A stretch of DNA of 64,000 nt from an uncultured Gammaproteobacteria bacterium. GTDB lineage: Bacteria > Patescibacteriota > Microgenomatia > Levybacterales > UBA12049. How positions within the stretch are numbered: position 1 is the first letter of the stretch; each line of letters starts with the position of its first letter. The notes beneath the pieces were generated by a model. It did no database searches and was not told the DNA's origin. It worked only from the letters and a program-made list of their open reading frames with translations. The stretch spans positions 1,441,887 through 1,505,886 of the forward strand of contig OZ246394.1 in the NCBI GenBank assembly GCA_965230895.1, given 5' to 3'. Shown one piece after another: positions 25,190 to 64,000 of this stretch. Made by a program: the position numbers and the translations under genes.

Positions 25190-25270
25190 TAATGATAAGA
25201 TTAAGATAAGATAATACTCAGCCTTGACAAGCCATATTAATATATGTAGTAATAAATATACTGGCAAAAG
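25190..25270 (+). promoter_or_regulatory. Conserved promoter/operator module, copy 1: GATAAGAT direct repeats, -35 TTGACA (25224-25229), invariant 18-mer ATTAATATATGTAGTAAT containing an extended -10-like TGTAGTAAT
   Basis: The same architecture and the identical 18-mer occur upstream of all three giant genes, 89-99 nt from TTGACA to ATG. Confidence 0.65.
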
Positions 25271-25318
25271 TTAAGCAAACCTATCCATTTGTGCGTGAAA
25301 ACTAGCCGGTGCTGCCCA

Positions 25319-28300
25319 ATGAACGAATCACTGCTCACAATACAGGAAGCTGCGAAGCTATTAGGAGTTTCTCCAACAACGCTTCGTCGCTGGGAAGAAC
25401 GAAAGGTTCTTCTTCCGTATCGAACTGCTGGAAACCAGCGAAGATATTCTCGAGAACAGCTTTTAGCCTTCAAAAAGAATGGTTACAGACCAGTCCAAAT
25501 GGCCTCCGTAGCTCCGTCTGATGCTCCAAAGGTGAATGAACCTATCGTTACTCCGATGCATCAAGCACAAGCTTCTGTTGACCAACTCATCACTCCTCAA
25601 TCTCCAGTCCAAACAACAGCTAATCCAATCTTAGTAACGCAGACTCAAAATGAGGCTAATGTCCAAGTTTCTGATATAGTTAGTCAAGCTCAAGAGAGGG
25701 TCGTTTCGGGGTACAAAATGCCATCCCGCTTGCCAAATGTCCGTGAGCTATCTCCAATGGCGGGTGTATTTGCTGCGCTTGTCGTCTTCGTTGGATTTGT
25801 CCTTGCAGCATCGTTAGCTCCTACATGGGGTGAAGATTTAGATAGGCTTGGTAAAGGATTCCCAAGAGATGGAGCAAGCGCTCAGCAAGTTCTGGCTGCA
25901 AATGACAATACGCCTTTATTTGTTTTGAAAGTTAATGTTCCGAGTGTCTTTGGAAAGAAAGCTTCATTCCTCGATAGCGTCGATATTAGCAAAGGCTTAA
26001 CCGTGGGAGGCGTTGCTACGATGAGTGGCGGGATCATTACCAACAATGCTGACATCAATGCTGGAACTGGTCGGTTAACTGCATCAAACGTAGTCTATTC
26101 AGTACTCGCAGGCAATAATATCTCGATTACTGGTGACCCTCAAAATCCTACCATTTCAGCTGACTTCGGTGGAGGAGTAGTGAGTTCATTCCAAGGGCAA
26201 AGTGGAGCGGTTTCTTTGCTTCAAGGCTCGGGAATTGGACTTGATGGTTTGACGATCACAAACACAGGCGTACTTTCCGTTCAAGGTCAATCCGGTGCAG
26301 TTAATTTCACTGGAGGAGCAGGAATTACGCTCAATAATCTTACTATAACAAACAGTGATCCAGGTTCAGCTCAAAAGATCTTCAGTACGTTCAACATAGA
26401 TGGCACTCCTGTGGCTGCTAGCTCTAATACTGATACCTTCAATTTCGCTGCTGGAAGCGGAATTACGCTCAGTACAAATACTACAGACAAAATTTTGACT
26501 ATCTCGGCGAACGGAGGAGCCACAAGTCAATGGACAACTACAGGATCAGATATATATTATAACTTGGGTAATGTAGGCATAGGAAATTCAGCTCCAGGTA
26601 CAACGTTGGATGTCACTGGAGATGGAAGGTTTTCTGGTACGCTTACCGTCTCAGGCTTAAGTACAGGAATTGTCAAAGCAGATGGATCAGGATTACTCTC
26701 AACAAGCGCATTGAATCTAGCTGGAGGAGCTTCAGAAATAACTGGAGTTTTGCCTGTAGCAAATGGAGGTACAGGTTTATCTTCAATTCCTACAAATGGT
26801 CAACTTCTTATAGGTAATGGAACTGACTACACATTGGGCAACCTAACAGGCACAGTCAATCAGATTACTATAAGCAATGGTGCTGGCTCAATTACTTTTT
26901 CAACTCCTCAAGATATTCATACTGCAGCCTCACCAACGTTTGCAACTATGAACTTAACCAACAGCACAAACCAGCTTGTATTTGGAACTGGAACAACTGG
27001 CACGATCAGTATGGATCCATTAACCACAAATCGTACCTATACATTCCCGGATGCAAGTGGAACTGTTTGTTTAACTTCGGGAAATTGTAGTGGTGGAGGT
27101 GGTGGAGGTATATCGGGTGCTGGGACAACGAACTATATCGCCAAGTTCACCAGCTCGAGCGGTATATCGGATTCTTCGATTTACGATAATGGAAAAGTTG
27201 GTATAGGAACTACAAGCCCGGAAGGGCTTTTAACTGTTTCTGGGGGACCTGCTGGCAAGGCTCTTGCAGTGTTTAATTACACTGGGTCAGGACAAAATAT
27301 TTTGACTGCTTCAGCCTCTGGAACCACAAGACTTACAATCAACAGTTCCGGGGACCTAAATATCATCGGTGGTGCGTATCAAATTAATGGCACTTCAGTT
27401 TTAACTAGTAACACGCTTGGTTCAGGGATAGTCAATTCTTCACTTACTTCAGTTGGTGCACTTGACTCAGGTTCAATCACTGCAGGTTTTGGCAACATTA
27501 ACGTGGGTATGGACAGTATCAGTGGAGGCGATATAACTTCAGTTGGTCCTGTAGGATTTGTCTCAACAGGAAATGGTGCAGGCTTATCGTTCTCAGGTAC
27601 TGGAAACCACGACATAACAGCATCTTCAGGTGTGCTTCGATTAGGCGCTGTGACATTAACTGGTGCGCTTACTGGGAATGGCCAAAATGTCACAGGCTTA
27701 AATAATCTTTCTGCTGGAGGTACCGTAACCTTTGGTGGGCTTGGAACGGGTATCGTTCAAAGTAATGGTTCAGGAGTACTTTCAAGTGGTGCTTTGAACT
27801 TGGCTGGAGGAGCTTCCTACGTAACTGGAGTTCTCCCTGTGACAAATGGTGGTACAGGATTGAATTCATTCAATACAGGGGACCTTATCTTTGCCTCTGC
27901 AAGTAATACATTGGCTGCATTGCCAATCGGTACTGAAGGCCAGGTCCTTGCTGTTTCTGGAGCGGGAACTCCTACATGGATTTCTACCGGAACACTTAAT
28001 TATTGGCAGCGAGCAAACGGTGCACTTGCTCCATTAAATATCTCTGATGATCTTCTTGTAGGGGGTGTCTCAACAGCTTCCGCGAAATTTCAGATCTTTG
28101 GAATCTCAGGTAATGCATCAACTTCCGGAACCTTCACGTTTAATACTGCAGGCGTGATTCAAAGTACCAATAACCATGGTATTACAATTGGAGGTTCGAC
28201 AACAGGAAATATTACCTTGTCTCCACAAAATGGTTCTGGGACAGTCACTTCAACAGGGAATCTTAATCTTCTTTCGGGTAAGGTATATCAGATTAATGGA

Positions 28301-31300
28301 TCAAATGTCTTAACCTCATCAACACTTGGTTCTAGTGTCACTGCATCTTCATTGACATCGGTTGGTACATTGACTGGTGGTTCAATTGCCTCAGGATTTG
28401 GTACTATCGCTACTGCCAACACCATCACTGGTACAACGTTGAATGGCACAACTGGGATCAATACAGGTGCAGGTGGTGGAACGCAAAGAATTGACACTTC
28501 TGGTAACCTTACAAATATCGGAACAACCCAATTGAATGGCATCACTTATACATGGCCAGGTTCAGCGGGAGGAAGCAACAATGTTCTAACTTCTGATGGC
28601 AGTGGTGGTTTGAGTTGGAATGATGTAACTACATTACCAGGCGTAGGTGATATAACAGCAATTGGAGATGTTCTTTCTGGCCCTGCATTCACTGCTGGTG
28701 GTACGCAAGGAACCTCTTTGTACTTCTATGATGCAGATGGACGGGGACAACTTACTATAGCGAACCTAACTGCTGCTCGAACATATACATTACCTGATGC
28801 TTCCGGCACAATCTGCCTTGATTCTGGGAACTGTGCAGGATCAGGTGGTGGGATTGTTGGTACAGGTACAGCGGGTCAATTAGCTTTCTTTAATGGTACA
28901 GGTACAATAACATCTGAGACTTCAGGCTTTGCATGGGATGCAACAAATAAAAAGCTTGGCATTGGTACGGATACTCCAACAGGCAAGCTTACAGTTTCTG
29001 GTGCAGCTGCTGGGAAAGCGTTAGCTATATTTGATGAGCTTGGTGATCAGGACATATTCTCAGCTTCAGCTTCAGGAATTACACAATTGAGATTAGCTCG
29101 AAATGGTGACTTGGCAATTGAAGGAATGCTTTCTGATCTTACGCAAAATGCATTAACAGTGAATGACAACTTGAATTTAGTCTCAGGCAACGCATTCCAG
29201 ATAAATGGCACAAATGTTTTGAGCTCATCGACACTTGGCTCAGGGGTTGTTAGCTCCTCATTGACTTCCGTTGGAGCTCTTTCATCGGGTTCAATTGCAA
29301 ATGGGTTTGGCAGTATCTTTACTTCAAATACTATTCAAGGTAGTGACATCACTGCTTCTGGAACAACAGGATTTACTGCTTCCGGCAATGGTGCTGGTTT
29401 AACCTTCTCAGGCACGGGTAATCATAGCATAAGTGCATCATCCGGAACCCTCCAGATCGGAGCCGCGACGTTGACTGGTGACTTAACTGGTAACAGCCAA
29501 AGTATCGTCGGAGTAAACAATTTGTCTGCGAGTGGCACAATTACTTTTGGAGGTTTGTCGACAGGGATTGTAAAGAGTAACGGCTCTGGTATCCTTTCTT
29601 CAAGCGCAGTCAACCTAGCTTCAGGTGATATCACTGGTACGCTTGGAGTTGCAAATGGTGGTACAGGTATAACTTCAGTTGGTGGTGCTGGTGGAGTAGC
29701 TTACTCCAATGGATCAACCTTTGCCTTCACAGCAGCAGGATTAAGTGGTCAGGTGTTAGTTTCAAATGGTACAGGCGCACCTTCATGGACTGACCCATCA
29801 ACGCTCGGAACAAATTATTGGCAACGAAATTCAGGTTTGCTTGCACCTCTTAATATAGCTGATGATTTGGCTGTTGGTGGATCAAGTACAGGATCAGCGA
29901 AGTTCCAGATCTTTGGCGGGACAGGTAATGCTTCAACTTCAGGTACGCTAACGTTCAATACTGCAGGCACTATCCAGACAACCAATAATCAAACCTTAAC
30001 CTTCGGAGGCGCGAGTACCGGCAATATCGTCTTCTCACCATTAAATGGTGCGGGTACTGTATTAGTTAATGGTAGTATGAATCTTTCTTCAGGTAATACA
30101 TATCAGATTAATGGAACAACTGTGTTATCTGCAACAACTCTTGGGACGGGAGTTGTCAATTCTTCGCTTACAAATGTCGGAATTTTGACTGGAGGCTCTA
30201 TTGCTTCCGGATTTGGAACAATCGCTACTGCCAATACAATTACCGGTACTACTATAAATGGAACGACTGGAATTAATACCGGTGCAGGAGCTGGTACACA
30301 ACGAATTACTAATAATGGTAATTTGGTTAATATCGGAACAACCCAATTAAATGGTGTAACGTATACCTGGCCAAGTGCAGATGGATCATCTGATTATGTG
30401 CTGACAACTGACAGCAGTGGTGGATTAACATGGAAGAATGTAACATCTGTCGGTGGAGCAGGTGATATAACAGCGATTGGAGATGTCACTTCAGGAGCGG
30501 CATTTACAGCTGCTGGTACACAAGGAACCTCTTTGTATTTCTATGATACAGATGGACGTGGTCAAGTAACCATTGCAAACCTCACAGCGCCTCGAACATA
30601 CACATTGCCTGATGCTTCCGGCACCGTTTGTCTCGATTCCGGTAACTGTGCTGGATCTGGTGGTGGTTTGACGGGAAGTGGAACTGCGGGACAAGTTGCA
30701 TTCTTCAATGGGACTGGTACTTTGACATCTGAAACATCAGGATTTGCTTGGGATGCAACAAATAAGAAGCTTGGTATTGGTACAAATACTCCAACCGGTA
30801 AATTGACGGTTTCTGGAGGTGCGACAGGAAAAGCACTTGCAGTCTTCGATGAAACAGGTGATCAGGATATCATTACTGCGTCTGCGTCAGGTACAACACA
30901 GTTTGTTCTTAACCGAAATGGTAATCTCGCAATTGAAGGTCAGCTTTCCGATCTCTCTCAGAATACACTTACTGTTAATGACAATTTGAACCTCACAACC
31001 GGAAATGAGTTCCAAATCAACAGCGCAAGCATCTTGAGTGCTTCAACTCTTGGTTCAAGTGTCATCAATTCATCTTTGACGTCAGTTGGAGCTTTGACGA
31101 GTGGCTCTATTGCTTCAGGCTTTGGTACTATATTAACAACTAATACCATCCAGGGTTCAGATATTACCGCATCAGGAGCTACAGGGTTTACCGCTTCTGG
31201 TAATGGAGCTGGATTGACGTTCTCAGGCACGGGTAATCATATCGTAAGTGCATCATCTGGAACACTCCAATTTGGTGCAGCCACATTGACTGGTGCAATC

Positions 31301-34300
31301 ACTGGAAATGGCCAAAATGTCACTGGCTTGAACAATCTTTCAGCTGGTGGAACGATCACATTTGGTGGACTTTCTACAGGAGTCGTCAAGAGCAACGGTT
31401 CAGGCGTTCTTTCATCAAGTGCGATTGGCTTAAATACAGGCGATGTTACGGGAACACTTCCAGTTGGCAATGGTGGAACTGGCCAAACAAGCTTCACAAC
31501 CAACGGAGTAGTATATGGTAATGGTTCAAGTGCGTTGTCCGTAACATCCGCACCAACTGGTGGACAAGTACTTCTCGGGAACAACTCCGGAGTTCCAACA
31601 TTCACCACTATTTCAGGTGGTGTAACTATTAGTAATACTGGTGTTGCAACGATTGCATTATCATCTTCAGGCGATACCGGTAATACAAGTTCAAACTCAG
31701 GATTGGAATTCAATACAACTGATGGATTATCACTCCTTAGAGGTTGTGCAAATGACGAAATCCTTAAATGGAATGATTCCTCAAAGACATGGGTATGTGC
31801 GACTGATGCTGGTGGTTCTGGATCTGCTGGTACTATTAATGTTCAGAATAATGAAGTTGGGATTGGATCCAATGTCGATACAATTGACTTTGGTACAGAC
31901 TTTACTGTCGCAGCATCTCCATCAAATGAAGCAAATGTCTCAATCGCTGATGATGTCTTGGATTTCTCAGAATTCATCGACAACATGACATTGGATGCAA
32001 ATACAAGCATTGCTACAGCGAACTTTAACTTAACACTCGGAACAAACGCTGGGACAGGCGGAGTCGTTGTTTCTCCAAATGCAGGTGGTAATGCAGCCTT
32101 GATCGTTAACAAGCAGGGAACAGGTGATATCTTCACGGCTTCTGCTTCAGGTACAACCCGATTGACCTTGAGCAATTCTGGTAACTTAAATATTGTTGGT
32201 GGTAGTTATCAAATTGGTGGTACAAATGTTTTGAGTAGTAGCACCCTTGGATCAGGTGTCATAGCTTCTTCTTTGACAAGTGTTGGGGCATTGAACTCCG
32301 GTTCAATAACTTCAGGCTTTGGAGCAATTGATACAGGAACTGATGCTATCTCTGGTGGAGACATCACTGCAACTGGAACGACTGGCTTTACCGCTTCTGG
32401 TAACGGCGCAGGTCTCACATTCTCAGGAACAGGTAACCATTCAATTTCAGCTTCAGCTGGAACCTTGCAGTTGGGCGCAACCACATTGACCGGAGCAATC
32501 ACAGGAAATGGTCAAAATGTTACAGGTTTGAACAATTTCTCAGCTGGCGGAACGGTAACCTTTGGAGGATTTACAACCGATGGCGGCTTACTCTACACAA
32601 ATGGTTCAGGCGTTCTCGCTCAGACATCTGCGGGGACAGGCGGACAATGTTTGGTCTCCAACGGTGGTGGCGCACCAACATGGGGAGCATGTGCTGGTGG
32701 TTTGGCTAATTATTGGAATTTAGCAAATGGTGTTATTACACCACAGAATTCAACTGTTGATTTCTTAATTGGTGGCCAAGCTACAAGTTCAGCAAAGTTC
32801 GCTGTCTTAAATGTTAATTCAGGAACACCAACAGCATCTGTCTCAGCTGGAGCGACAGGTGGTCTTTCAATCGCAGCAGATGGCACAATTGGCACAACAA
32901 ATCGACAATCATTAACTCTTGGTAACAGTTCAACAGGTAATATCGTCTTGAATGGATTTGGAGCTGGTATCGTTAAGACCACTGCTTCAGGTGTACTCTC
33001 AAGTTCAGCACTTAATTTAGCTTCAGCAGAAGTTACTGGTACACTTGGTGTCGGCAATGGTGGAACTGGCCAAACAAGCTTCACAACAAATGGCGTTGTC
33101 TACGGAAATGGTTCAAGTGCGTTGTCTGTAACCTCTGCGCCAACTGGCGGCCAAATCTTGATGGGCAATAACTCTGGAGTTCCTACATTCACAACCGTTT
33201 CAGGTGGCCTTACCTTGAGTGATACAGGCGTTGCTTCAATTGTCTTAACTTCATCAAACGATACTGCGAACACGAGCTCTAATTCAGGACTGGAGTTCAG
33301 TACAGCAAATGGCTTGTCATTGCTTCGGGGATGCAACAATGGCCAGATCTTGAAATGGAATGAAACTTCAAAGCTTTGGGAATGTGGTTCTGACGCTGGT
33401 GGAACCGGTGGCCCTGCAGGTGTTGTCAATGTTGAGAACAATGACTCAGGTGTTGGTACAGATGTTGATACCATTGATTTCAGTTCAGATTTCTTGGTCA
33501 CAGCATCTCCATCAACAGAAGCAAATGTTTCAATTGCTGATGATGTTATTGACTTCACAGAACTTGCTGATAGCTTGAGCCTTGATGCTGCAACACAAAT
33601 TGCCTTAAATAACTTCAACCTCACACTCGGAACAAACGCTGGTACAGGTGGAGTTATTGTTGCTCCAAATGCTGGCGGCAATGCTGCATTAATCATCAAC
33701 AAGCAGGGGACAGGCGACATCTTTACAGCTTCAGCTTCAGGTACCACTCGATTGGCTTTGACAAATAGTGGAGACTTGAACATCATCGGTGGCGCATATC
33801 AGATTGGTGGTACAAGTGTCTTGAGTAGTAACACGCTTGGTTCAGGTGTAGTTAATTCATCTTTGACAAGTGTTGGTGCATTGAACTCCGGTTCAATAAC
33901 TTCAGGCTTTGGAGCAATTGATACAGGTACAGATAATATCTCCGGAGGCAATCTCACTGCTACAGGAACGACTGGTTTCATCGCTTCAGGCAATGGTGCA
34001 GGTTTGACATTCTCAGGCACAGGCAATCATGACATCACAGCATCTGGTGGTACACTCCGATTGGGTGCAGCGACATTGACTGGGGCAATCACAGGAAACG
34101 GTCAAAATGTCACTGGTATTGCGAACCTGGGTGCAACCGGAACTGTAACCTTTGGCAGCTTCACAACAGATGGTGGTTTGCTCTACACAAATGGTTCAGG
34201 CGTAGTCGCACAAACTGCACAAGGCACAGCTGGTCAATGTCTTCTCTCAAATGCAGGTGGCGCACCAACATGGGGTTCATGTACTGGCGGCTTAGCTAAT

Positions 34301-41111: not shown

Positions 41112-41245
41112 TAAAGGGGAGTGTTGTACCTGATTTATAGTTGAATTTTGCTTCAGTCTATACTTGTCCGCATCGTTTGCAACTGTACAAAAATTGATCT
41201 AGTATAAAGAAGGAGTACTGCCGATTTTTTCGGGTACCTTTTGCT

Positions 41246-44476: not shown

Positions 44477-45004
44477 ATGCTGAGTGCCATGCAAAAAGTA
44501 AAAACCTTTCATAAAAAACACCCAGTTGCTTCCACACTGATTGCAGTAGGATTAGTCGGTGTTCTCATTGGTGGTGGATATGGTGGCTTTCGTTACTGGC
44601 AGTATACAATGAGCCCTGAGGGCATCTTCCAGAAAGAAGCAAAGCAATACGAATCTGATTGGAATGCGATGATGAAAAACGCTGGAGAGCAGATAAATCT
44701 TCCGAAAGATGAAGTCCCAGTGCTCGCAACAGTTACTGACAAGTCTGCTCTCGATAAACAAAAGTTTTTTGCAAATGCACAGGAGGGAGATAAAATTATC
44801 ATGTATAAAAAACACAAAATTGCGTATCTTTATCGTCCTTCAGTTGGGAAGGTCATTACCAAAGCAACGTTGAACTTGGTTGCTCCAACAGCAATTCCTT
44901 TTGAATCTGCTTCTGTTGCAGGGACATCTTCCTCAGAACTTGAGAAAGGGCCAGTGATAGAAGCTTCAAAAGAAGGAACCCTCGATAAACTCATACCGCA
45001 ATAA
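44477..45004 (+). CDS. Small membrane-anchored hypothetical protein (175 aa)
   Basis: One TM helix LIAVGLVGVLIGGGYGGF, then a soluble domain. Located between the M23 protein and giant gene 2. Confidence 0.5.
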   Translation: MLSAMQKVKTFHKKHPVASTLIAVGLVGVLIGGGYGGFRYWQYTMSPEGIFQKEAKQYESDWNAMMKNAGEQINLPKDEVPVLATVTDKSALDKQKFFANAQEGDKIIMYKKHKIAYLYRPSVGKVITKATLNLVAPTAIPFESASVAGTSSSELEKGPVIEASKEGTLDKLIPQ

Positions 45005-45254
45005 TTCTGAGCATCAAATTGATTTATTAATTTACCTTTTGATATATTTTGACTTCTTTGTTGAATAAAGAAAATTATACGAGGAAAGTTTCTCAAAATT
45101 AACTTATTATAAGACTTCAGAAGAATAAAAATCCGACTAATAAAATTTGCAACGAAAGTTTGCAATAAAGGCGTATAACCAAATGAGAAATCTACATCTC
45201 TTTTGCCCTAAAAGATCCCCGAGATTTTTCACGAAATATCTGAGCACAATCGGT

Positions 45255-45340
45255 AAATGATGATAAGTATATGATAAGATTATTCTCATCCTTGACAGCC
45301 TTATTAATATATGTAGTAATTATATTATGTGAAAATATTG
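45255..45340 (+). promoter_or_regulatory. Conserved promoter/operator module, copy 2 (TTGACA 45292-45297; 18-mer 45303-45320)
   Basis: Sequence identity to copy 1 and copy 3. Upstream GATAAGTATATGATAAGAT repeats. Confidence 0.65.
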
Positions 45341-45390
45341 GACAAAGTGTGACAAAGTCTAGTATTTGAGCTCAAATTCATTACTGCCCA

Positions 45391-53958: not shown

Positions 53959-54486
53959 GTAGATTACTTGCTATAGCAATAATTGAAACTTATTCATTAA
54001 AGCTAAATATAGTTGTATTAGCATACTATATGAAAAATTCATTCTTTTAGAAATTTAAGATGAGGAATTGCTCTTTTTCTCAGATCTTCACACTGCTTCT
54101 TAGTTATTCTTTGGAGTAATAATTATTCGTTATTGAAAGTACTGAGAAACATCAAGAACATTAAATTATCTCCAAGGTTTTGGTGATAACATTATTTACC
54201 TTTTGATACAGATAGTCATATTGCTTTTTTCTCTACATTGAATTGGCTTTTCTCTCGTATTTTTCTTCAAAGCTAAATATCTATCTTCCAAAATTCCATC
54301 AAAAGTAGAGAAGTCTTATCTCAACAATAAGTGGTACAAAAATATGTTAAATGTATCAAAGTGGGTAGTAAATTTTTCGTGAAAAAAAACTTGAGTTTTG
54401 AAGCTGTGAAAAAACTCTATATTCTTACAAAACTTCATCTTTATAAAAACTTGGACATTGAGGATATTGAGGCTAATAACGAGAAT

Positions 54487-54575
54487 TTGATGAGATTAAG
54501 ATAAGATTAATTTGTGCTTGACAGGCTTAATTAATATATGTAGTAATATATATACTAGCAAAAGTTGGACATTAG
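54487..54575 (+). promoter_or_regulatory. Conserved promoter/operator module, copy 3 (TTGACA 54518-54523; 18-mer 54530-54547)
   Basis: Sequence identity to copies 1 and 2. Upstream GAGATTAAGATAAGATTA repeats. Confidence 0.65.
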
Positions 54576-54606
54576 GCAGGGTGTCCAAGTTCCTAGAAGA
54601 CCTGCC

Positions 54607-57600: not shown

Positions 57601-60600
57601 ACTGCAAGTACATTGGGTTCAAGTGTCATTAATTCCTCACTGACTTCAGTTGGGGCGTTAACAGGTGGATCAATCGCTTCAGGTTTTGGAACGATCACAA
57701 CAACCAATACCATCACCGGCACGACATTAAACGGGACAACAGGTATCAATACTGGCGCATCAGCTGGAACACAGCGAATCGATGCATCAGGCAACTTGGT
57801 TAATATAGGAAACATTACCGCGAGCGGGACAATTACCTTTAGTGGCTTATCAACGAACAATGGCTTGCTTTACACCAATGGTTCAGGAGTTGTTTCTCAA
57901 GCAGCAGCTGGAACATCAGGCCAACTCCTTGTTGCAAATGGTTCTGGTGTCCCAACATTTGTGACACTTTCAAGTGATGCAACATTGGCTGCAAATGGTA
58001 CGTTAACAATCGGTGCTGATGCTGTAGCGTTGGGAACGGATACTACCGGAAATTATGTCGCGACATTATCTTCAGGAAATGGTATCTCAGCGGCAGCAAC
58101 GGGAGAAGGTTCCACTCCGACGATTGCGCTTGCAGCATTGACAGCTGATTGGAATCAGACAGGTGGATTTGACATCGTCTTGGGAAATGCTTCAAGTGAG
58201 CTTCGAATCATGGAATCATCAGGAGCTACATATTACGGAACAATTGATGTCGGAGATCTGACCAATAATCAAACATATACGTTCCCAGATGCATCTGGTA
58301 CCGTTTGTCTGCTTGAAGCTGCAAATTGTACAGGTGGAGCAAGCAGTTCTAAGTGGCAGAGAAATGGTACAGTGCTTGCACCATTAACAGCCTCAGATCA
58401 AGTTGTTCTCGGTGGTAATACTACGACTGACTTCCAATTTGAAGTAAATGGATATCGAGTCGGTAAAGCATTGGTTTCATTTAATCAGACAGGTGATCAA
58501 AACATACTTACTGCAAGTTCATCAGGTGTGACAAAGTTCAACCTTACGAACACCGGCAATATAGAATTCGCAGGCAATACAAGTTTCCTTAATACACTTA
58601 CCTCAGTGGCGACTGCAAATAGAACATACACATTGCCTGATGCTGATGGCACAATTTGTTTGACGACAGGTAATTGTGCTGGTGTCGGTGGAGGACTTAC
58701 TGGTGCAGGAACTTCAGGACAAATTGCATTCTTCAATGGCACAGGAACTTTGACTTCTGAGACTTCAGGATTTGCCTGGGATGCAACCAACAATAAATTA
58801 GGTATCGGCAATGACACGCCGACAGGTAAATTGGATGTTACTGGCGCAAATCTTGGAAAAGCGCTTGTCATCTTCAATGAAACAGGCGATCAAGATATTC
58901 TAGTTGGATCTGCTTCTGGAACAACACGATTTGTCTTTGACCGAACAGGTAACTTAAATCTTAATGGTGGAGCGTATCAAATCGGAGGGGCAACCGTGCT
59001 TAGTTCTACAACGCTTGGATCAAGTGTTGTTTCATCTTCACTGACATCCGTTGGTGCATTAACTGGCGGATCAATTGCATCTGGATTTGGGACAATCGCA
59101 ACAAATAACACCATTACCGGTACTACTATAAATGGTACGACAGGAATTAATACTGGAGCAGGTGCTGGTACACAGCGAATTGATAACAATGGTAATCTCT
59201 CAAATATCGGAACGATTAATGCTTCAGGTGCTTTGACCTTTGGCAACTACACAACCAACGGTGGACTCTTATATACAAATGGTTCTGGAGTCGTTGGTCA
59301 AACTGGTGCAGGAACATCAGGACAAGTGCTCCAATCCAATGCAGGTGGTGCTCCAACATGGGTTGATGCAGCAACACTCGGCACGAATTATTGGCAGCGA
59401 ATTGCTGGTACAGTAAGTCCACTCAATATTACTGATGATCTTTTGATCGGTGGAACTGCGACAAGTTCTGCAAAGTTCCAAGTATTTGCAAATACAGGAA
59501 ATGCAACAACATCAGGTAATCTAACATTCAATGCAGCAAGTGCAATTCAGACGACACGAAATCAATCACTCACAATCGGAGGCGACACAACAGGCAATAT
59601 CACACTTTCACCTTTGAATGGTAACGGTACCGTGACTTCAACTGGAGACTTGAATCTTGCAACGGGTAAAGGTTACCAAATCAATGGAGCAAATGTTTTG
59701 ACTGCAACAGCACTTGGATCAAGTGTGGTTTCATCATCGCTTACATCGGTTGGTGCGTTAACTGGCGGATCAATTGGATCTGGATTTGGAACAATCGCAA
59801 CAAGTAACACAATCACTGGTACAACATTGAATGGTACGACAGGAATTAATACAGGAGCAGGAGCGGGAATACTCCGAATAGATAATAATGGCAATCTTTC
59901 TAACATCGGTACAATCGATTCCACATACTTGGATGCTACTGGTAATAATGTTAACTTGGCTGCATCAACCAATTTGCAATTCAATGGAACAACCGTTATT
60001 AATAGTTCACGAGAACTTAGTAACTTGACTGGATTGTCTACAAGTCTTAATCCGACTGCAGCAAATACGTATGCACTTGGTACAGGAACTGGCAATCAAT
60101 TCTCAACAATTTATGGACAGGCTTTGTATCAAAATGGCAATCAAGTTTGTGATACTTCAGGTAACTGTTCTGGATTGTCAGTTAATTATTGGGATCAGGC
60201 AAATGGTGTTATCAATCCAAAGAATGCAACGCTCGATTTCTTGGTAGGTGGCAACGCTACTGCTTCAGCTAAATTTGCAGTTTTGAACATTAACTCTGGC
60301 ATTCCAACAGCATCTGTTTCAGCAGGGACAAATGGTGCTGCTTATTTGACTGCAGCTGGAACGTTGCAAACTACGGCAAATCAGACTTTGACTATCGGAG
60401 GAAATTCAACTGGAAATATTATTCTTTCACCACTTGGTGGTTCAGGTACGGTTACTTCAACAGGCGATTTGAATTTGGCAAGTGGTAAGCAATTCCTTAT
60501 TAATGGTGCATCTGTTTTGACATCAACAGCACTTGGTACAGGAGTTGTTTCATCATCCCTCACAAGTGTCGGCGCATTAACTGGAGGATCAATCGGATCA

Positions 60601-63600
60601 GGTTTCGGTACGATCGCAACTGCAAATACCATCACTGGTACAACAGTAAATGGTACGACAGGAATTAATACTGGAGCAGGTGCTGGAACACTCCGAATCG
60701 ATAACAATGGTAACCTTTCAAACATTGGCACAATCAATGCAAGTGGTGCGATTACCTTTAGCAACTTGGGTGCGGGTATCGTGAAATCAACAGGTGGTGG
60801 ACTGCTTTCATCTTCTGCATTGAATTTGGCAAGTGGTACAGAAGTTACTGGAACGCTCGGAGCAGGAAATGGTGGTACAGGATTCAATTCTTATGCAACT
60901 GGTGATCTCCTGGTTGGAAATGGTTCAAGTACATTGAGTAAGTTGGCTATTGGCACAGACGGGCAAATTCTCTCAATAGCTGGTGGAACTCCTTCATGGA
61001 TTTCAAGTTCATCAATTAATTATTGGCAGCGAGCAAATGGATCACTTGCTCCGTTAAATATTACTGATGATCTTTTGATCGGTGGCACTGCGACAAGTTC
61101 AGCGAAGTTCCATGTCTATGGTTTGACAGGGAATGCTTCAACATCTGGTACATTAACTTTTGATACCGTAGGCAATATCCAAACGACTCGAAATCAAGCA
61201 TTAACCATCGGTGGAAATGCAACAGGAAATATTGCTTTGATGCCACAAAACGGTGCAGGTATGGTCGGTATAGGTACAACAACTCCAACCAATTCACTCA
61301 CTATTGGTGATGGTGGTATTACTATTAATAGAACAGGCGGTTTGGATCCAAATCTTGTCTTCAGTACAAGTGGAACAGCTCAAGCACAGATCCGTGGTGC
61401 AACTGATGGATCACTTTCATTTACCAATGGAAATGCTGGTACAACATGGGGCATCTTTAATTCAGTTGGAAGCTTTGGACTTGGTACTGGTTCAACGCCA
61501 CTTGCACGACTTGATGTAAGGGGTAATTCAGGGACAACTCCAGTTGCATCATTCTCTGGCAACACATCAAGAGCTGCGATGCTCGTTGATAATAATGGAG
61601 TAGGCGACTTGTTCACCGCTTCAAAGAGTGGCGCTACCAAGTTTGTCATCGCAAACAATGGTAACGTCGGCATCGGTACACCAACTCCAAATTCTGCATT
61701 GAGTATCGTCAATCCGATTGCAGCACAAACAGGATTAACGATCCGCGCGAATGCCTCACAAAGTACAAATACATTTGTTATTGAAGATAGTGGTGGTACT
61801 CCACAGTTCACTATTGATCAATATGGTGGCATCTATGGCTCAAATGGATTAACAATTGATCGATATGCTGGTATCGGTACAGGTGGAAGTTCTGGAACGC
61901 AACTCCGAATTCAGACAATTACAGTCAACGATGTTGGTTTTGATACCACTGGTATGAATGGGCAAATCGCAAATCTTGCAAACTTCAATCCAGTCTTTGG
62001 TTATACAGGTGCATGGTTTGATGAATCCGCAAACTTACGTATCGGCAATGGAGCTCCTGATACAGGTAAATTAAATGTAACGGGTGCATATACAGGAAAG
62101 GCATTGGCAATTTTTAATGAGATAGGCAACCAAGATATCTTTACCGCATCAAGTGCTGGAACGACACGATTCACAATCGCAAATAATGGCACACTTACAG
62201 CATCTGCCTACACAACAGCAGGCGGACTCTTATACACAAATGGTACAGGAACAGTCGCCCAAACAGGTGCTGGCACATCCGGTCAATGTCTTTTCGGTGG
62301 TGCAACTCCTTCATGGGGAACTTGTGCAGTGGGTACGAATTATTGGAATGTTTCAAATGGTGCACTTTCTCCTGTTAATAATACCCTTGATCTGTTGATT
62401 GGAGGAACAGCTTCATCATCAGCAAAGTTTGCGTTCCTTAATGCGAATTCAGGAACTCCAACAGCAAGTATCTCTGCTAATTCTGGTGGAAATGCAACAT
62501 ACTTAACAGGAGATGGCACACTTTCTACAACATTAAATAGAACATTAAGCTTGAATCCAAACGGCGGAAATGTAGGAATCGGCACAACAAATGCTACACA
62601 AAAGCTTACGGTAAACGGAAGAATCAGAACCGATGGAGGAATGGTCTTCAATCAAGGATTGGCGCCAACAGCTAACTTCATTTATGTCGGAGGAGATACC
62701 GCGGGTGCTACCGATCAACAGTTCGGATTTGTTCTTGCAGGTGTTGGTTCTACAACTGCCGCACAAGGAGGATACTTTGTCGGTAGAGGAAATAACTTCA
62801 GTGACATTTCAAATCAAAAAGGAAATATGTATTTTGCTGCTGGGAATCCAGGTGGAGCAGGAGCACTTGAAGGATCTCTCAATTTCTTAACGGGAAACGA
62901 AGTGAATCGAATGATGATTACAAATGCCGGTACCATCGGTGTTGGCACAACAAGTCCACTTGCAACATTGGATGTCCGAGGACAAGTTGGTACCAATCCA
63001 ATTGCTTCATTCTCAGGATCAACTTCAAGAGCAGGATTGATTGTTGATAATAGCGGAACAGGGGATCTTTTCTCAGCTTCATCATCAGGACTTAATCGAT
63101 TTGTTGTGAAGCAAGATGGTAATGTGGGTATCGGTACAGCCACTCCAAATTCAAAGCTTGAGGTAGCGGGTCAAGTACGTACAAGTGGGGCATCCGGAGG
63201 ATACAGATTGGAGGCACAAGATAATGGTGGATCCTTCTATACATTATATAGTGCTTCAGGGGAATTAACATTTTATGGAGGGCTTAATGTTCGTGCAATC
63301 TTAACAGCAAGCGGCTTATTTGGCTTAGGAACAAATGTTTATGATCCACAAGCACAAATGGATATCCGAAGTACACTTGGGACGCAACCGATAGCATCAC
63401 TCTCAGGTACTACTTCACGAGCAGGTTTTGTTGTTGACAACAATGGAGTTGGAGACCTTTTCACAGCATCAAAGAGCGGCGCAACGAAGTTTACAATCTT
63501 GAACAATGGAAACATTTCAATGAACAACTACAACAACTGTGGTATGTTGACGACAGTTGGAACGGTGCTCACATGTAGCTCTGCGCCAGCAGGAAGTACA

Positions 63601-64000
63601 AATTATTGGAATCTTGCGAATGGTACATTGGCTCCAGTAAATACTACACTTGATCTGTTGGTTGGTGGTACTTCTTCATCATCAGCAAAGTTTGCAGTCT
63701 TGAATGTTAATTCCGGTACGCCAACTGCGTCCATATCTGCAACAGGTACAGGAAACGGCTTGGCTTTAGCAGGGGATGGTACTATCCAATCGCTCAGAAA
63801 GAATACATTAACGCTTGGAGGATCGACGACAGGTGATATCTTGTTCAAGCCAAATAATTCTTCAAGTAGTTTATACCTAGGATCAAATGGAAGTGTAGGT
63901 CTCGGTACGACAGATACCTCAGCTGGAAAGTTTACAGTTTCGGGAACATATACTGATCCAGCTGATGGTTATGCAGGCCTTGCTATTAGTCCAACATTTA
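54607..64000 (+). CDS. Giant surface protein 3, 3'-partial (more than 3,130 aa, no stop within window), same HTH-TM-repeat architecture. Absent from the ORF track because the frame never closes.
   Basis: Manual translation from ATG 54607 gives MKDQTLTIQEAAKFLGVATKTLRRWDESGRLKPERTVGNQRRYSLSELEAF, then TM ALAGALALLLLFFTFGF, then LIVLRVNVPSVFGKQATFLDSVNIQKGLTVGGVATLSGG, near-identical to gene 1 residues about 200-260. Only short antisense ORFs are reported for 54.6-64 kb. Confidence 0.8.
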   Translation, partial: MKDQTLTIQEAAKFLGVATKTLRRWDESGRLKPERTVGNQRRYSLSELEAFQQTKPQFPVISDPASEAPLPSHIAVAQEAVDLQAKNAVNEQPQFSGVVDAQVSKTEVKEEVSKPQPFGLGTVPMQSSLERKESNDNSNESKGIKIGFFSHPHYAMALAGALALLLLFFTFGFINAQNANDTDLAFQNKAVLAAGDKTPLIVLRVNVPSVFGKQATFLDSVNIQKGLTVGGVATLSGGVVTNNADINAGTGRLTASNVIYSLLAGSNISITGDPQNPTIAADFGSGLVSSFQGETGAVTLLQGSGIGLDGLTITNTGVLSVQGQTGSVTFTGGNGVSVSGTTINNTDPGSAQNIFKSIIAGSTTIDANSNNDSVTFAAGSGITITGNAGSKTVTITSNASGTLSGLTTNGVLYATDPNNASSTTAGTTGTVLKGVTAGAPIFGAVDLSADVTGLLAVNRGGTGLTTTPTNGQLLIGNGAGYSLGTITAGAGIGVSNGAGTISLTNNGVLSITGTANQITTSGSTGAITLSLPQDIATSSNPIFSSLSLTANTNQLTLGTGNTGVLTLSALSGNRTYTLPDASGEICLSIGNCPGGGGGTIGGSGTTNYLPRFTSATNLGNSLIYDTGTKIGIGTTSPQGLFSVVGGAAGQALVSLDETGDQNILVGSASGTTRFVFDRAGNLNINGGSYQIGGSNVLTSTTLGSSVTGSSLTSVSTLNAGSIASGFGSIDVGADSISGGDITATGSTGITITGNGAGLTFSGTGNHVINASSGVLQFGAATLTGAITGNNQNITGLSNLSAAGTITFSGLSTGVVKSNGSGVLSSSAVGLNTSDVTGILGPTNGGTGLNSYNAGDLIYASGSNTLAARAIGTNGQILTVSGGVPVWADAGGLINFWQRANGAISPLNITDDFLIGGTATSSARFQISGTTGDASTSGSITFRNGGSIQTTSNQSFTIGGSTTGNITLAPLNGNGVVTVNGDLNLASGKALQINGSSVLTASTLGSSVINSSLTSVGALTGGSIASGFGTITTTNTITGTTLNGTTGINTGASAGTQRIDASGNLVNIGNITASGTITFSGLSTNNGLLYTNGSGVVSQAAAGTSGQLLVANGSGVPTFVTLSSDATLAANGTLTIGADAVALGTDTTGNYVATLSSGNGISAAATGEGSTPTIALAALTADWNQTGGFDIVLGNASSELRIMESSGATYYGTIDVGDLTNNQTYTFPDASGTVCLLEAANCTGGASSSKWQRNGTVLAPLTASDQVVLGGNTTTDFQFEVNGYRVGKALVSFNQTGDQNILTASSSGVTKFNLTNTGNIEFAGNTSFLNTLTSVATANRTYTLPDADGTICLTTGNCAGVGGGLTGAGTSGQIAFFNGTGTLTSETSGFAWDATNNKLGIGNDTPTGKLDVTGANLGKALVIFNETGDQDILVGSASGTTRFVFDRTGNLNLNGGAYQIGGATVLSSTTLGSSVVSSSLTSVGALTGGSIASGFGTIATNNTITGTTINGTTGINTGAGAGTQRIDNNGNLSNIGTINASGALTFGNYTTNGGLLYTNGSGVVGQTGAGTSGQVLQSNAGGAPTWVDAATLGTNYWQRIAGTVSPLNITDDLLIGGTATSSAKFQVFANTGNATTSGNLTFNAASAIQTTRNQSLTIGGDTTGNITLSPLNGNGTVTSTGDLNLATGKGYQINGANVLTATALGSSVVSSSLTSVGALTGGSIGSGFGTIATSNTITGTTLNGTTGINTGAGAGILRIDNNGNLSNIGTIDSTYLDATGNNVNLAASTNLQFNGTTVINSSRELSNLTGLSTSLNPTAANTYALGTGTGNQFSTIYGQALYQNGNQVCDTSGNCSGLSVNYWDQANGVINPKNATLDFLVGGNATASAKFAVLNINSGIPTASVSAGTNGAAYLTAAGTLQTTANQTLTIGGNSTGNIILSPLGGSGTVTSTGDLNLASGKQFLINGASVLTSTALGTGVVSSSLTSVGALTGGSIGSGFGTIATANTITGTTVNGTTGINTGAGAGTLRIDNNGNLSNIGTINASGAITFSNLGAGIVKSTGGGLLSSSALNLASGTEVTGTLGAGNGGTGFNSYATGDLLVGNGSSTLSKLAIGTDGQILSIAGGTPSWISSSSINYWQRANGSLAPLNITDDLLIGGTATSSAKFHVYGLTGNASTSGTLTFDTVGNIQTTRNQALTIGGNATGNIALMPQNGAGMVGIGTTTPTNSLTIGDGGITINRTGGLDPNLVFSTSGTAQAQIRGATDGSLSFTNGNAGTTWGIFNSVGSFGLGTGSTPLARLDVRGNSGTTPVASFSGNTSRAAMLVDNNGVGDLFTASKSGATKFVIANNGNVGIGTPTPNSALSIVNPIAAQTGLTIRANASQSTNTFVIEDSGGTPQFTIDQYGGIYGSNGLTIDRYAGIGTGGSSGTQLRIQTITVNDVGFDTTGMNGQIANLANFNPVFGYTGAWFDESANLRIGNGAPDTGKLNVTGAYTGKALAIFNEIGNQDIFTASSAGTTRFTIANNGTLTASAYTTAGGLLYTNGTGTVAQTGAGTSGQCLFGGATPSWGTCAVGTNYWNVSNGALSPVNNTLDLLIGGTASSSAKFAFLNANSGTPTASISANSGGNATYLTGDGTLSTTLNRTLSLNPNGGNVGIGTTNATQKLTVNGRIRTDGGMVFNQGLAPTANFIYVGGDTAGATDQQFGFVLAGVGSTTAAQGGYFVGRGNNFSDISNQKGNMYFAAGNPGGAGALEGSLNFLTGNEVNRMMITNAGTIGVGTTSPLATLDVRGQVGTNPIASFSGSTSRAGLIVDNSGTGDLFSASSSGLNRFVVKQDGNVGIGTATPNSKLEVAGQVRTSGASGGYRLEAQDNGGSFYTLYSASGELTFYGGLNVRAILTASGLFGLGTNVYDPQAQMDIRSTLGTQPIASLSGTTSRAGFVVDNNGVGDLFTASKSGATKFTILNNGNISMNNYNNCGMLTTVGTVLTCSSAPAGSTNYWNLANGTLAPVNTTLDLLVGGTSSSSAKFAVLNVNSGTPTASISATGTGNGLALAGDGTIQSLRKNTLTLGGSTTGDILFKPNNSSSSLYLGSNGSVGLGTTDTSAGKFTVSGTYTDPADGYAGLAISPTF

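Follow-up and report, generated by a model that had tools for sequence, protein, structure and literature searches.

Introduction

BldC is a small MerR-like winged helix-turn-helix (wHTH) protein whose molecules line up head to tail on direct repeats and form multimers there; its optimal site is CAATTCGGACAATTCGGACA, in which Lys26 contacts GG, Arg30 contacts the C-G/YpG step, and the wing contacts the AT-rich part (PMC5859096). Proteins that combine an HTH with a membrane anchor are on record as well, and MerR and HTH_17 types are catalogued in a survey of transmembrane transcription regulators (TTRs) (PMC10269533); the entries of these two types that we sampled measure 113 to 414 aa. Giant proteins of another kind are known from ultra-small predatory or episymbiotic bacteria: the archaeovorins and dockerin-type proteins of Omnitrophota, which are longer than 30,000 aa, combine many transmembrane (TM) regions with SecA-DEAD domains and peptidases of the C39/S8 types, and the paper that describes them makes no mention of an HTH (bioRxiv 10.1101/2023.11.21.568195).

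Here, we analyze a stretch of 64,000 nucleotides (the window) in which three paralogous + strand genes, A, E, and F, share a common plan: a wHTH, a linker, one TM helix, and a mosaic-repeat ectodomain. This head-to-tail plan, proposed in a first-pass annotation, was borne out by Pfam, hydrophobicity, and internal-repeat comparison. The same annotation considered the architecture undescribed. This holds for the fusion to a giant fiber, which we did not find in the literature on Patescibacteria giant proteins, CPR giant genes, or Microgenomates transmembrane MerR proteins; it does not hold for HTH plus TM, as such proteins are already catalogued as TTRs (PMC10269533). What is new here is therefore limited to a BldC-type HTH-TM module fused to a giant fiber.

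Results

Gene layout and integrity of the reading frames

The genes of the locus are as follows, in window coordinates.

23162-23932, - strand: 256-aa membrane protein with an extracytoplasmic gp12-like domain, adjoining the 319-aa gene in many loci
24035-24994, - strand: 319-aa gene, divergent from gene A, with a weak C-terminal wHTH (Pfam HTH_DeoR, E 1e-3)
25319-39358, + strand: gene A, 4679 aa as present; wHTH aa 5-54 (25331-25480); TM aa 146-170 (25754-25828), then a conserved juxtamembrane domain and a mosaic-repeat ectodomain with 12 Cys pairs
39318-41111, + strand: ORF B, 597 aa, final repeats and distal C-terminal domain of the ancestral A+B protein
39343-39353, + strand: frameshift site GTTAAAAGGAG between A and its C-terminal continuation B
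41246-44371, + strand: gene C, 1041 aa; M23 peptidase, DUF2341, and LamG (Laminin_G_3) by Pfam, behind a hydrophobic anchor at the N-terminus
44477-45004, + strand: gene D, single-TM protein of 175 aa with a conserved place between C and the E-type giant gene
45391-53958, + strand: gene E, 2855 aa, complete; wHTH aa 5-52 (45403-45546); TM aa 127-149 (45769-45837); Kelch propeller aa 1885-2072 (51043-51606); phi29-gp12-like beta domain aa 2451-2600 (52741-53190), then a long helix and a C-terminal beta sandwich
54607 to beyond 64000, + strand: gene F, >3131 aa, extending past the window end; wHTH aa 6-54 (54622-54768); TM aa 156-178 (55072-55140), then a repeat ectodomain

Uninterrupted + strand frames run from 25256 to 39355, 39315 to 41108, 45370 to 53955, and 54559 to 63999, and F is 39% identical to A across ~3000 aa. 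The first gene had been read as encoding a protein of about 5,270 aa. In the window it is present as two ORFs, A and B, which lie in different frames and share 41 nt, whereas intact relatives have a single chain; a 1-nt shift in the A4 run within GTTAAAAGGAG joins the two into 5263 aa. Because a single HSP of the F-like ORF of locus L004 spans the A/B junction and the full-length 5762-aa relative P0208 carries the HTH and the B-type C-terminal domain on one chain, the single A+B gene is, by sequence comparison, the ancestral state, interrupted in the window sequence. ORF B resembles the repeats of A, E, and F, and its C-terminal domain is kept at the termini of giant ORFs in L003, L006, and P0208. 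The identical frameshift is found in the independent Logan assembly SRR14271365, and the frameshifted gene A may be defective.

The first-pass annotation would have withdrawn its proposal had the long frames been assembly chimeras, and the frameshift in A, together with a homologue broken into four ORFs in a closed long-read Levybacteria genome (L009), could be read in favor of such an artifact, be it collapsed repeats or a separate small HTH gene wrongly fused. Collapsed-repeat chimeras are unlikely, however, because the repeat copies have diverged to a DNA identity of just 60 to 88% and the whole 2855-aa E gene was recovered on a contig of another run, SRR14271372. With the A/B junction reproduced in SRR14271365 and HTH, TM, and ectodomain unbroken in >30 loci from many samples, an artifact of either kind is largely refuted, and we give it hardly any credence. 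The L009 chromosome was itself set aside as an intact reference, since long-read indel errors may have split the gene.

The N-terminal domain, linker, and membrane anchor

Pfam MerR, HTH_17, and MerR_1 match aa 5 to 54 of A, E, and F above the Pfam cut-offs (E 8e-12 to 1e-7; MerR-superfamily scores of 43 to 45 bits versus a cut-off of 28.2). The NCBIfam matches are excisionase and BldC models, with HTH_BldC scores of 24.6 bits (A) and 42.4 bits (E) that stay below the cut-off of 77, and the PDB sequence matches include the BldC-DNA complexes 6ama and 6amk. The earlier label of a MerR-type HTH thus stands at the level of the superfamily, but not in the sense of a full MerR protein, the domain being of the minimal BldC/excisionase type: no further MerR-related Pfam match indicates the canonical coiled coil and effector domain, and a Q/P/V/S-rich linker and the TM segment follow instead.

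A phmmer alignment to 6ama, onto which we mapped the residue roles reported for BldC (PMC5859096), shows that L11, E16, V23, T27, R30, W31, R41, T42, G44, R47, R48, and Y49 of BldC are kept, and gene E additionally keeps F21 and R22. Among 14 family members, the equivalents of the contact and interface residues Arg30, Trp31, Gly44, Arg47, and Arg48 are invariant or nearly so. Judged by these comparisons, BldC is the closest relative of the HTH.

A, E, and F each contain a single strongly hydrophobic stretch, preceded by K/R and followed by D/E residues; it resembles a signal anchor and agrees with the one TM helix postulated before. A DNA-binding domain and a TM segment thus reside on one polypeptide in A, E, and F, as in ToxR-like TTRs. 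The linkers between them (71 to 100 aa) are unconserved and probably disordered. Some family members have two HTHs in tandem, and P0210 has eight, followed by a TM helix.

Control regions

A conserved block upstream of A, E, and F, noted previously, was confirmed by sequence comparison, and exact copies of one candidate operator word lie inside genes A and E.

25158-25318, + strand: control region of gene A; class-specific repeats CAAACyTATCCATTTG (25158-25173 and 25276-25291), tandem GATAAGATTA (25194-25214), TTGACA (25224-25229), TATGTAGTAAT (25243-25253), and CTGCCCA (25312-25318) abutting the ATG
45262-45390, + strand: control region of gene E; tandem GATAAG (45262-45282), TTGACA (45292-45297), TATGTAGTAAT (45310-45320), cores ATTGGACA and GTGTGACA (45335-45354), and CTGCCCA before the ATG
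54446-54606, + strand: control region of gene F; AAACTTGGACA (54447-54457), tandem GATrAGATTA (54489-54509), TTGACA (54518-54523), TATGTAGTAAT (54537-54547), inverted pair AAGTTGGACA / TGTCCAAGTT (54562-54591), and CTGCC before the ATG
25660-25670, - strand: exact F-class candidate operator word AAACTTGGACA in the linker-coding part of gene A
45576-45586, - strand: second intragenic copy of AAACTTGGACA, within gene E

The 35 non-identical upstream regions of the family have in common a TTGACA-N17-TAGTAAT-like block and repeated cores, which are AAAsTTGGACA-like and mostly arrayed at a spacing of 10 to 12 nt. K/R-class cores (see below) cluster between -100 and 0 from the ATG, where the + strand carries 45 and the - strand 10, compared to 0 to 7 in other 100-nt bins. 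Neighboring cores of the same strand are most often 10 nt (16 cases), 12 nt (8), or 22 nt (5) apart. Core copies also occur upstream of the -35 element, and some flank the promoter-like block. Independent of class are the tandem GATAAGATTA abutting the -35 element, GTGAAAA, and CTGCCC at the ATG. The spacer between -35 and -10 measures ~17 nt and contains an ATATTAATAT palindrome, which is not class-specific; the class-specific repeats lie outside the spacer and are mostly direct, unlike canonical MerR operators, which are palindromes within an over-long spacer of 19 to 20 bp.

We take the TTGACA-N17-TAGTAAT block to be a presumed promoter, a cautious wording because a strict sigma-70 scan missed it on the + strand (its -10 lacks A2/T6 in either register) and gave weak - strand matches instead. 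An Rfam gathering scan of the window returned 0 matches. In F, the repeats make up an inverted repeat of 10 bp with the potential to fold as RNA; as a general account of the repeats, RNA hairpins were rejected because direct copies outnumber inverted ones 45 to 10. All four exact copies of AAACTTGGACA in the 64 kb are at the 5' ends of A, E, and F, and the intragenic ones in A and E are possible cross-regulation sites. The lack of a Shine-Dalgarno sequence is no peculiarity of the giant genes, since just 2 of the 27 genes in the window possess it.

Covariation of the HTH and the repeat core

The repeat core varies in step with the residue at the position of BldC Lys26, while its CA is constant. 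With K or R in this position (xK/xR before TLRRW), the core TT[GAT]GACA was present at 25 of 25 loci, versus 0 of 10 other loci, the cores having been defined from the same loci. The other pairs are PT with yTATCCA, PM and SQ with TTATACA, and KD with TATGCA; the core copies of these non-K classes number 3 to 6 against a background of 0.04 to 0.08, an association inflated by shared ancestry because the classes comprise only 2, 2, and 3 loci, partly orthologous. Within one locus, all core copies change together with the fused HTH, and paralogues of the same genome carry different HTH-core pairs (A versus E/F in the window; L005, L006, and L007 in MAG_784).

Direct-repeat arrays of an AT-rich part, 4 bp, and C are present and covary with the Lys26-position residue; head-to-tail binding at one-turn spacing is a candidate mode. 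The fused HTH, predicted to bind DNA, appears to recognize the repeats in the promoter region of its own gene. Of the two roles previously suggested for it, autoregulation through the upstream operator is favored by this covariation, and a RodZ-like protein anchor finds no comparable support.

The ectodomain

The ectodomain had been described as a G/T/S/N-rich repeat region of low charge with Cys pairs, and both composition and internal-repeat analysis agree. The protein of gene A contains 17% G, 15% T, 11% S, and 8.5% N, compared to ~7% D+E+K+R, and Cys occurs solely as pairs, 6 to 17 residues apart. Internal repeats have DNA periods of 1815, 1590, 1404, and 753 nt (605, 530, 468, and 251 aa), and the units are shuffled assemblies of smaller modules.

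Pfam, PHROG, NCBIfam, and PDB sequence searches of the ectodomains, the 605-aa unit included, and of ORF B gave nothing except Kelch in E. An AlphaFold2 model of the 605-aa unit (24-row alignment) was poor (pLDDT 52, pTM 0.26) and was excluded from the fold search. The model of the E C-terminal region (pLDDT 80.5) gave 47 matches in BFVD and has the predicted fold of a C-terminal autochaperone of the phi29 gp12 type. The 256-aa - strand membrane protein is homologous to E aa 2458 to 2587 (tblastn, 32% identity, E 1.6e-15). Peptidase_G2 and Peptidase_S74 have no Pfam match in A, B, E, or F, and PF11962 or PF13884 is found on some homologues only. On the basis of this one C-terminal domain of E and of domain co-occurrence in homologues, we infer an extended, phage-tail-fiber-like surface fiber, probably homotrimeric. 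Surface exposure and functions as a fiber, in adhesion, or in attack would be in keeping with it.

Neighboring genes, family, and organism

The 319-aa gene is conserved upstream of A-type HTH-giant genes, being divergent and adjacent in 12 related loci (31 to 59% identity, tblastn). Gene C is the M23 peptidase/LamG neighbor pointed out earlier, now with DUF2341 added by Pfam, and its synteny extends to L003, L004, L023, L024, and L026-L028. Gene D has no Pfam family match, and no free BldC-like ORF was found within the 64-kb window.

At E<=1e-30, the family comprises 83 clusters (50% identity), with members of 5762, 5468, and 3363 aa. Named family records, drawn in part from a genome scan with a 5-row alignment, are from Levybacteria and other Patescibacteria, and the source is a Levybacteria-like CPR bacterium, so that the small-genome type of organism presumed in the first pass is upheld by its relatives. 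The label "uncultured Gammaproteobacteria" on related MAG contigs was dismissed as a placeholder, given their gene content and named neighbors (Levybacteria/Patescibacteria). Contig-truncated fragments of the family are labeled "MerR family transcriptional regulator, partial" at NCBI, which masks that each is the tip of a protein of 3,000 to 5,800 aa.

Discussion

CPR bacteria (Patescibacteria) are thought to depend on other cells, and to our knowledge almost nothing has been reported on how their attachment structures are built and controlled. The reading that we favor, and consider fairly probable from the sequence comparisons, is a self-regulating TTR fused to a giant surface fiber. Each gene would encode a type II (N-in, C-out) membrane protein with an ectodomain of 2,700 to 5,700 aa forming the extended, probably homotrimeric fiber and with a cytoplasmic tip, the 50-aa BldC-type wHTH, on a flexible tether of 70 to 100 aa. 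The wHTH would bind arrays of ~11-bp direct repeats (AAAsTT-xxx-CA), mainly between the -10 element and its own start codon and with further copies upstream. As the HTH seems to read the repeats of its own promoter, the fiber may control its own production from the membrane, in the style of ToxR and CadC. Specificity would be private to each paralogue, the Lys26-position residue choosing those bases of the core that vary and the equivalent of BldC Arg30, an invariant Arg, reading the constant CA. The M23 peptidase/LamG and 175-aa membrane proteins would be accessory factors that may remodel the cell wall for the fiber or act on a partner cell. The position of the sites suggests repression as the sign of regulation; since most repeats fall within what is presumably the transcribed leader, they may instead act at the level of RNA or be read by a separate regulator.

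Alternatively, the HTH might work after release, the fiber serving as a contact or tension sensor whose engagement, shedding, or failed assembly triggers proteolysis in the linker or TM and frees a BldC-like domain to bind the arrays, including the cross-sites in paralogues. The long, unconserved, probably disordered linker, the exact F-class words in A and E (hinting at action in trans), and the nature of BldC itself as a free 68-aa protein (PMC5859096) would fit. We nevertheless regard release as unlikely: inspection revealed neither a protease gene nor a conserved cleavage motif in the linker, ToxR and CadC act while resident in the membrane (PMC10269533), and in tiny CPR cells a tether of 70 to 100 aa plausibly reaches the DNA. 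Even less probable, in our view, is a purely architectural role, in which the HTH, like RacA, tethers DNA, here the locus that encodes it, to the membrane at the fiber base, possibly coupling transcription, translation, and export of a 9- to 17-kb gene, and leaves promoter activity uncontrolled. RacA and Xis do provide precedents of MerR-like wHTH proteins with non-transcriptional roles (PMC5859096), and the sites lie in cis beside the start of a very long gene with presumed co-translational export; yet their concentration between the -10-like element and the ATG, with some flanking the promoter, is typical of operators, and simple tethering needs no private specificity.

A comparably low probability attaches to the idea that another factor, or the RNA itself, uses the repeats and that the fused HTH is a RodZ-like protein-interaction module or a vestige. 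Additional regulators are to be expected because of the class-independent motifs (tandem GATAAGATTA, GTGAAAA, CTGCCC); moreover, the F repeats could fold, and the conserved divergent 319-aa gene carries a wHTH of its own. Against this stand the family-wide conservation of the DNA-contact residues of BldC, the mostly direct orientation of sites that also occur upstream of -35, and the window's lack of a free BldC-like ORF. Furthermore, the copies covary with the fused HTH, so that each paralogue in a genome would need its own extra factor.

A more speculative extension of membrane-bound autoregulation, which we rate as rather doubtful, is a feedback device coupled to assembly or contact. The HTH would leave the ribosome first, beside its own operator, while the 9- to 17-kb gene is still being transcribed, and would act in cis; trimerization of the exported fiber, nucleated from the C-terminal chaperone-like domain, would gather three HTHs at the membrane for cooperative head-to-tail binding to the array. 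The gene would thereby count finished or engaged fibers, with the locus held at the export site. If true, one polypeptide would contain a surface-appendage checkpoint, and the paralogues would stay independent through their orthogonal HTH-operator pairs.

The family, with at least 83 clusters, mostly from Levybacteria and other Microgenomates-type CPR, joins a phage-fiber-like giant to a DNA-binding domain whose recognition code is well understood. It offers a directly testable connection between gene control and a structure of the cell surface, in organisms that possess very few regulators, as well as natural orthogonal pairs of BldC-type HTHs and operators in which one residue would correspond to two or three bases. 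Its definition also corrects the NCBI labeling practice for truncated fiber fragments.

Comparison with known systems

Phage tailspikes and fibers (phi29 gp12; Peptidase_G2/S74) share the G/T/S/N-rich, poorly charged repeat stalk, and homologues of the A/E/F repeats bear S74, G2, or C1q ends. Unlike them, A, E, and F are cellular, membrane anchored, and encoded in the chromosome amid housekeeping genes; in E, a helix and further domains follow the gp12-like domain, and the window proteins have no Pfam S74/G2 match. Like the Omnitrophota giants, they are very large, mostly extracellular proteins of a small-celled, host-dependent lineage, with attachment or wall degradation as the proposed function, but each has one hydrophobic segment and no Pfam SecA match, which sets them apart from that group. 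RodZ (HTH-TM-periplasmic domain) has the same N-in HTH-TM topology, yet its XRE-type HTH binds MreB rather than DNA and it has no fiber. RacA, likewise fiberless, also joins DNA to the envelope (the pole) through a MerR-like wHTH, but is a soluble, symmetric dimer on GC-rich sites.

With the TTRs ToxR, TcpP, and CadC, the three proteins have in common an N-terminal cytoplasmic DNA-binding domain, a single TM, an extracytoplasmic C-terminal part, and predicted membrane-bound regulation. They differ in that the HTH is of the BldC type instead of the OmpR type, the extracytoplasmic part is a giant fiber instead of a small sensor domain, and the apparent target is their own gene. The fiber HTHs, in turn, resemble Streptomyces BldC (6ama/6amk) in being a wHTH of ~50 aa that lacks both the coiled coil and the effector domain of MerR, in the conserved equivalents of Arg30, Trp31, Gly44, and the wing residues Arg47/Arg48, and in the candidate AT-rich + 4 bp + C repeats with a spacing of one helical turn, close to BldC AATTCGGACA. 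Whereas BldC is a free protein of 68 aa, the fiber HTH forms the N-terminal tip of a membrane protein of 2,800 to 5,800 aa, scores below the NCBIfam BldC cut-off, mostly has a wing Gln in place of His46, and seemingly serves its own gene instead of a regulon.

Protein plan of the giant genes

Long frames on the + strand fill the window from 25.2 kb to its end. Three of them (A, E and F) encode clear paralogues, A and F sharing 39% identity across about 3,000 aa. The genes of this region and the two divergent genes beside A are as follows.

23162-23932, - strand: 256-aa membrane protein with a signal-like N terminus and C-terminal TM helices, adjoining the next gene
24035-24994, - strand: 319-aa protein with a weak C-terminal DeoR-like wHTH, divergent and next to A-type genes in 12 loci
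25319-39358, + strand: gene A, 4679 aa
39318-41111, + strand: ORF B, 597 aa, sharing 41 nt with A in a different frame
41246-44371, + strand: gene C, 1041 aa (M23 peptidase, DUF2341, LamG)
44477-45004, + strand: gene D, 175-aa TM protein
45391-53958, + strand: gene E, 2855 aa
54607 to beyond 64000, + strand: gene F, >3131 aa

The first-pass annotation had proposed a MerR-type HTH followed by a single TM helix for all three giants, and this plan is borne out. A MerR/HTH_17/MerR_1 domain occupies aa 5 to 54 of each protein (E values of 8e-12 to 1e-7, exceeding the Pfam cut-offs), and each has one strongly hydrophobic stretch (A 146-170, E 127-149, F 156-178), flanked by K/R on its N side and by acidic residues on its C side. 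Since no signal peptide precedes the HTH, these flanking charges predict an N-in/C-out signal anchor. The linkers, of 71 to 100 aa, are rich in Q, P, V and S and unconserved.

At least seven loci have C and D conserved directly ahead of an E-type gene. By sequence, the 319-aa protein looks like a degenerate Fic-type protein, and no Fic model matched it. The middle domain of the 256-aa protein is homologous to E aa 2458-2587, a phi29-gp12-like domain.

Integrity of the long frames

A single gene of about 5,270 aa had been proposed at the head of the row. This describes the ancestor, but here the gene is interrupted and A and B are separate ORFs. Joining them requires a 1-nt shift in GTTAAAAGGAG (39343-39353), an A4 run, and would give a product of 5263 aa. 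The repeat pattern of A is carried on in B, an intact F-like ORF in a related locus (L004) aligns over the junction as one HSP, and a 5762-aa relative (P0208) combines the N-terminal HTH with a B-type domain at its C terminus; A and B were therefore once a single gene. An independent Logan assembly (run SRR14271365) has the identical base run at the frameshift. The shift could be a genuine truncation that left a pseudogene, a case of phase variation, or an error common to both assemblies. In a closed Levybacteria chromosome (OY970292.1, locus L009), a homologous giant gene at 9839-20333 is divided over four overlapping ORFs; it has the promoter and operator of the window genes and a 55-aa N-terminal extension ahead of the HTH.

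Chimeras of collapsed repeats, which the first-pass annotation had named as a possible source of the giant frames, are unlikely because the repeat copies are just 60 to 88% identical at the DNA level and the entire E gene was recovered again on a contig from a second run (SRR14271372).

Host and family

The genes flanking the giants include leuS and argS, an F-type ATP synthase operon, comEA/comEC and one for a sensor kinase, a content that identifies a bacterial chromosome. NCBI records place the giant proteins on a contig of 1.61 Mb. ATP synthase alpha, beta and gamma (18038-22426, - strand) score under the NCBIfam equivalog cut-offs (e.g., atpD, 449 versus 462.85 bits), which points to a divergent lineage. 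The DNA-uptake machinery at 2458-5200 (+ strand) comprises ComEA (SLBB and HhH) and then ComEC, with separate Competence-domain and metallo-beta-lactamase ORFs.

Relatives of the N-terminal 350 to 500 aa occur in Levybacteria, Amesbacteria, Daviesbacteria and "Patescibacteria group" MAGs, where they bear the NCBI name "MerR family DNA-binding transcriptional regulator, partial", the proteins being cut off at contig ends; from the same start, ORFs of related loci extend to >3,600 aa. HMMER, run exhaustively over 1.84 billion representatives, placed 83 clusters in the family at E<=1e-30, and members matching at residues 1 to 370 include proteins of 5762, 5468, 3363 and 3220 aa.

A BldC-like HTH

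The HTH matched an NCBIfam excisionase domain model and, under its cut-off, the BldC model. Searches of PDB sequences returned the CarA N-terminal domain, the BldC-DNA complexes 6ama and 6amk, SoxR and CarH. Neither a coiled coil nor an effector domain follows the wHTH, which is thus of the minimal BldC/Xis type. With residue roles taken from BldC (PMC5859096), D24-P25-K26-T27-V28-T29-R30-W31 aligns to S-(T/P)-x-T-L-R-R-W of the giants and the wing G44-G45-H46-R47-R48-Y49 to G-N-Q-R-R-Y, and the equivalents of Arg30, Trp31, Gly44, Arg47 and Arg48 show no or almost no variation across the family. On its optimal site, CAATTCGGACAATTCGGACA, Lys26 of BldC contacts the GG, Arg30 reads C-G and its 5' pyrimidine step (CA on the top strand), the wing lies in the AT-rich part, and protomers are arranged head to tail at one-turn intervals (PMC5859096). 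Some family members have two tandem HTHs, and a 623-aa relative (P0210) is a membrane-anchored array in which eight wHTH copies, of two types that alternate, stand in tandem before a TM helix; both would fit array binding.

Control regions

Upstream of A, E and F, tandem GATAAGATTA repeats abut a perfect TTGACA, which is followed by a 17-nt spacer and TATGTAGTAAT; the same layout is found again at homologues in genome and metagenome loci. The promoter and transcription start of the giant genes are inferred. The recurring features in the window are as follows.

25194-25214, 45262-45282 and 54489-54509: tandem 11-nt repeats GATAAGATTA(A/T), two copies at the -35 hexamer
25312-25318, 45384-45390 and 54602-54606: CTGCC(C) before the ATG, also in L002-L044 (L009, 9828-9834)
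25660-25670, - strand: AAACTTGGACA, inverted, in the linker-coding part of A
45576-45586, - strand: AAACTTGGACA, inverted, in the linker-coding part of E

In relatives, the repeats abutting the -35 hexamer read GATATGATTA or GATATGTTTA, in two or three copies. Their sequence is independent of HTH class (defined by the two residues directly before TLRRW), which suggests binding by a second regulator common to the genes, perhaps a response regulator. The sensor kinase gene of the window lies at 5898-7634. (C)CTGCC(C) stands 0 to 3 nt ahead of the ATG in almost every HTH-giant gene of all classes, with no Shine-Dalgarno sequence present, and the motif could be a translation signal or a portion of a binding site. 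CTGCC-ATG also occurs at one unrelated window gene (10657, a dockerin protein). A terminator-like hairpin with a T-run lies at 25113-25139 (+ strand), upstream of the A promoter, where no + strand gene ends.

The control regions also contain repeats of a word about 11 nt long, AAAsTTnnnCA, whose class-specific core is the candidate operator. For the class with K or R directly before TLRRW, 45 cores on the + strand and 10 on the - strand fall within 100 nt before the ATG, compared with 0 to 7 per 100-nt bin elsewhere from -400 to +1400. Neighboring same-strand copies are spaced by 10 nt (n=16), 12 nt (n=8) or 22 nt (n=5), which is helical phasing. Additional cores lie about 60 to 100 nt upstream of the -35 hexamer. 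The F operator word, AAACTTGGACA, has four exact copies in the window, two of them in the F control region; among related loci, cores on the minus strand are also concentrated between +100 and +500, with none beyond +500. The copies inside A and E and these minus-strand cores hint at downstream sites or cross-regulation between paralogues.

Covariation of HTH and core

The core varies between loci, all copies within one locus changing together, and it tracks the residue at the position of BldC Lys26.

Residues before TLRRW, core and loci
xK or xR: TT[GAT]GACA; 25 of 25 loci, 0 of 10 others
PT: yTATCCA; window A, L007
PM and SQ: TTATACA; L006, L010
KD: TATGCA, 3-6 copies; L013, L018, L020

Backgrounds were 0.04 to 0.22 per 260 nt; the loci that served to define the cores also served to test them, and the minority classes comprise few loci, in part orthologous. 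The motifs had been derived before the comparison with the BldC structure. Paralogues of one genome have different residue/core pairs (window A versus E/F; L005, L006 and L007 of MAG_784). Every core is closed by CA. Following the BldC contacts, the variable residue corresponds to the variable bases and the invariant Arg to the invariant CA.

A probable phage-fiber-like ectodomain

G, T, S and N make up 45 to 50% of the ectodomains and charged residues about 7%, and Cys occurs only as pairs whose partners are 6 to 17 residues apart. Internal repeats have DNA periods of 1815, 1590, 1404 and 753 nt, and an HMM built on one 605-aa unit resolves the units as mosaics of shuffled smaller modules. 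The repeats had no match in Pfam, PHROGs, NCBIfam or PDB sequence searches, and a single unit modeled poorly as a monomer (pLDDT 52). Repeat homologues sometimes terminate in Peptidase_S74, Peptidase_G2 or C1q, which are trimeric fiber ends. E contains a Kelch propeller (aa 1885-2072), and its last 405 aa gave a confident model (pLDDT 80.5), in which a beta domain (E 2451-2600) precedes a 50-residue helix, an extended segment and, at the end, a beta sandwich. Structural matches of this model include trimeric phage decoration proteins, the phi29 head-fiber base and tailspikes, Foldseek concurs on phage-type matches, and a viral library gave 47 at E<=1e-3. The model supports a phage-fiber-like, probably trimeric, stalk.

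Interpretation and comparison with known systems

Most economically, the giants can be read as transmembrane transcription regulators, each with a giant surface fiber as its "sensor"; the fused HTH of each paralogue would act on the repeats of its own gene, making each self-regulating. The predicted sites lie between the -10-like element and the ATG, a position that suggests repression. Alternatively, the HTH may be freed by proteolysis or may be a purely architectural DNA tether, and the upstream repeats may be recognized by some other factor.

Two adjacent secreted-looking proteins of the window (10657-13720, + strand) have type I dockerin ends, one with CBM_4_9 also; in Omnitrophota, by comparison, dockerins are a feature of giant proteins. 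The architecture of the giants had been put forward as not described. That holds for a BldC-type HTH on a giant fiber, which is absent from the literature searched, but regulators combining an HTH with a TM helix are already a recognized class: a survey lists 386 MerR, 350 MerR_1 and 151 HTH_17 examples (PMC10269533), and its sampled MerR/HTH_17 entries are 113 to 414 aa long.
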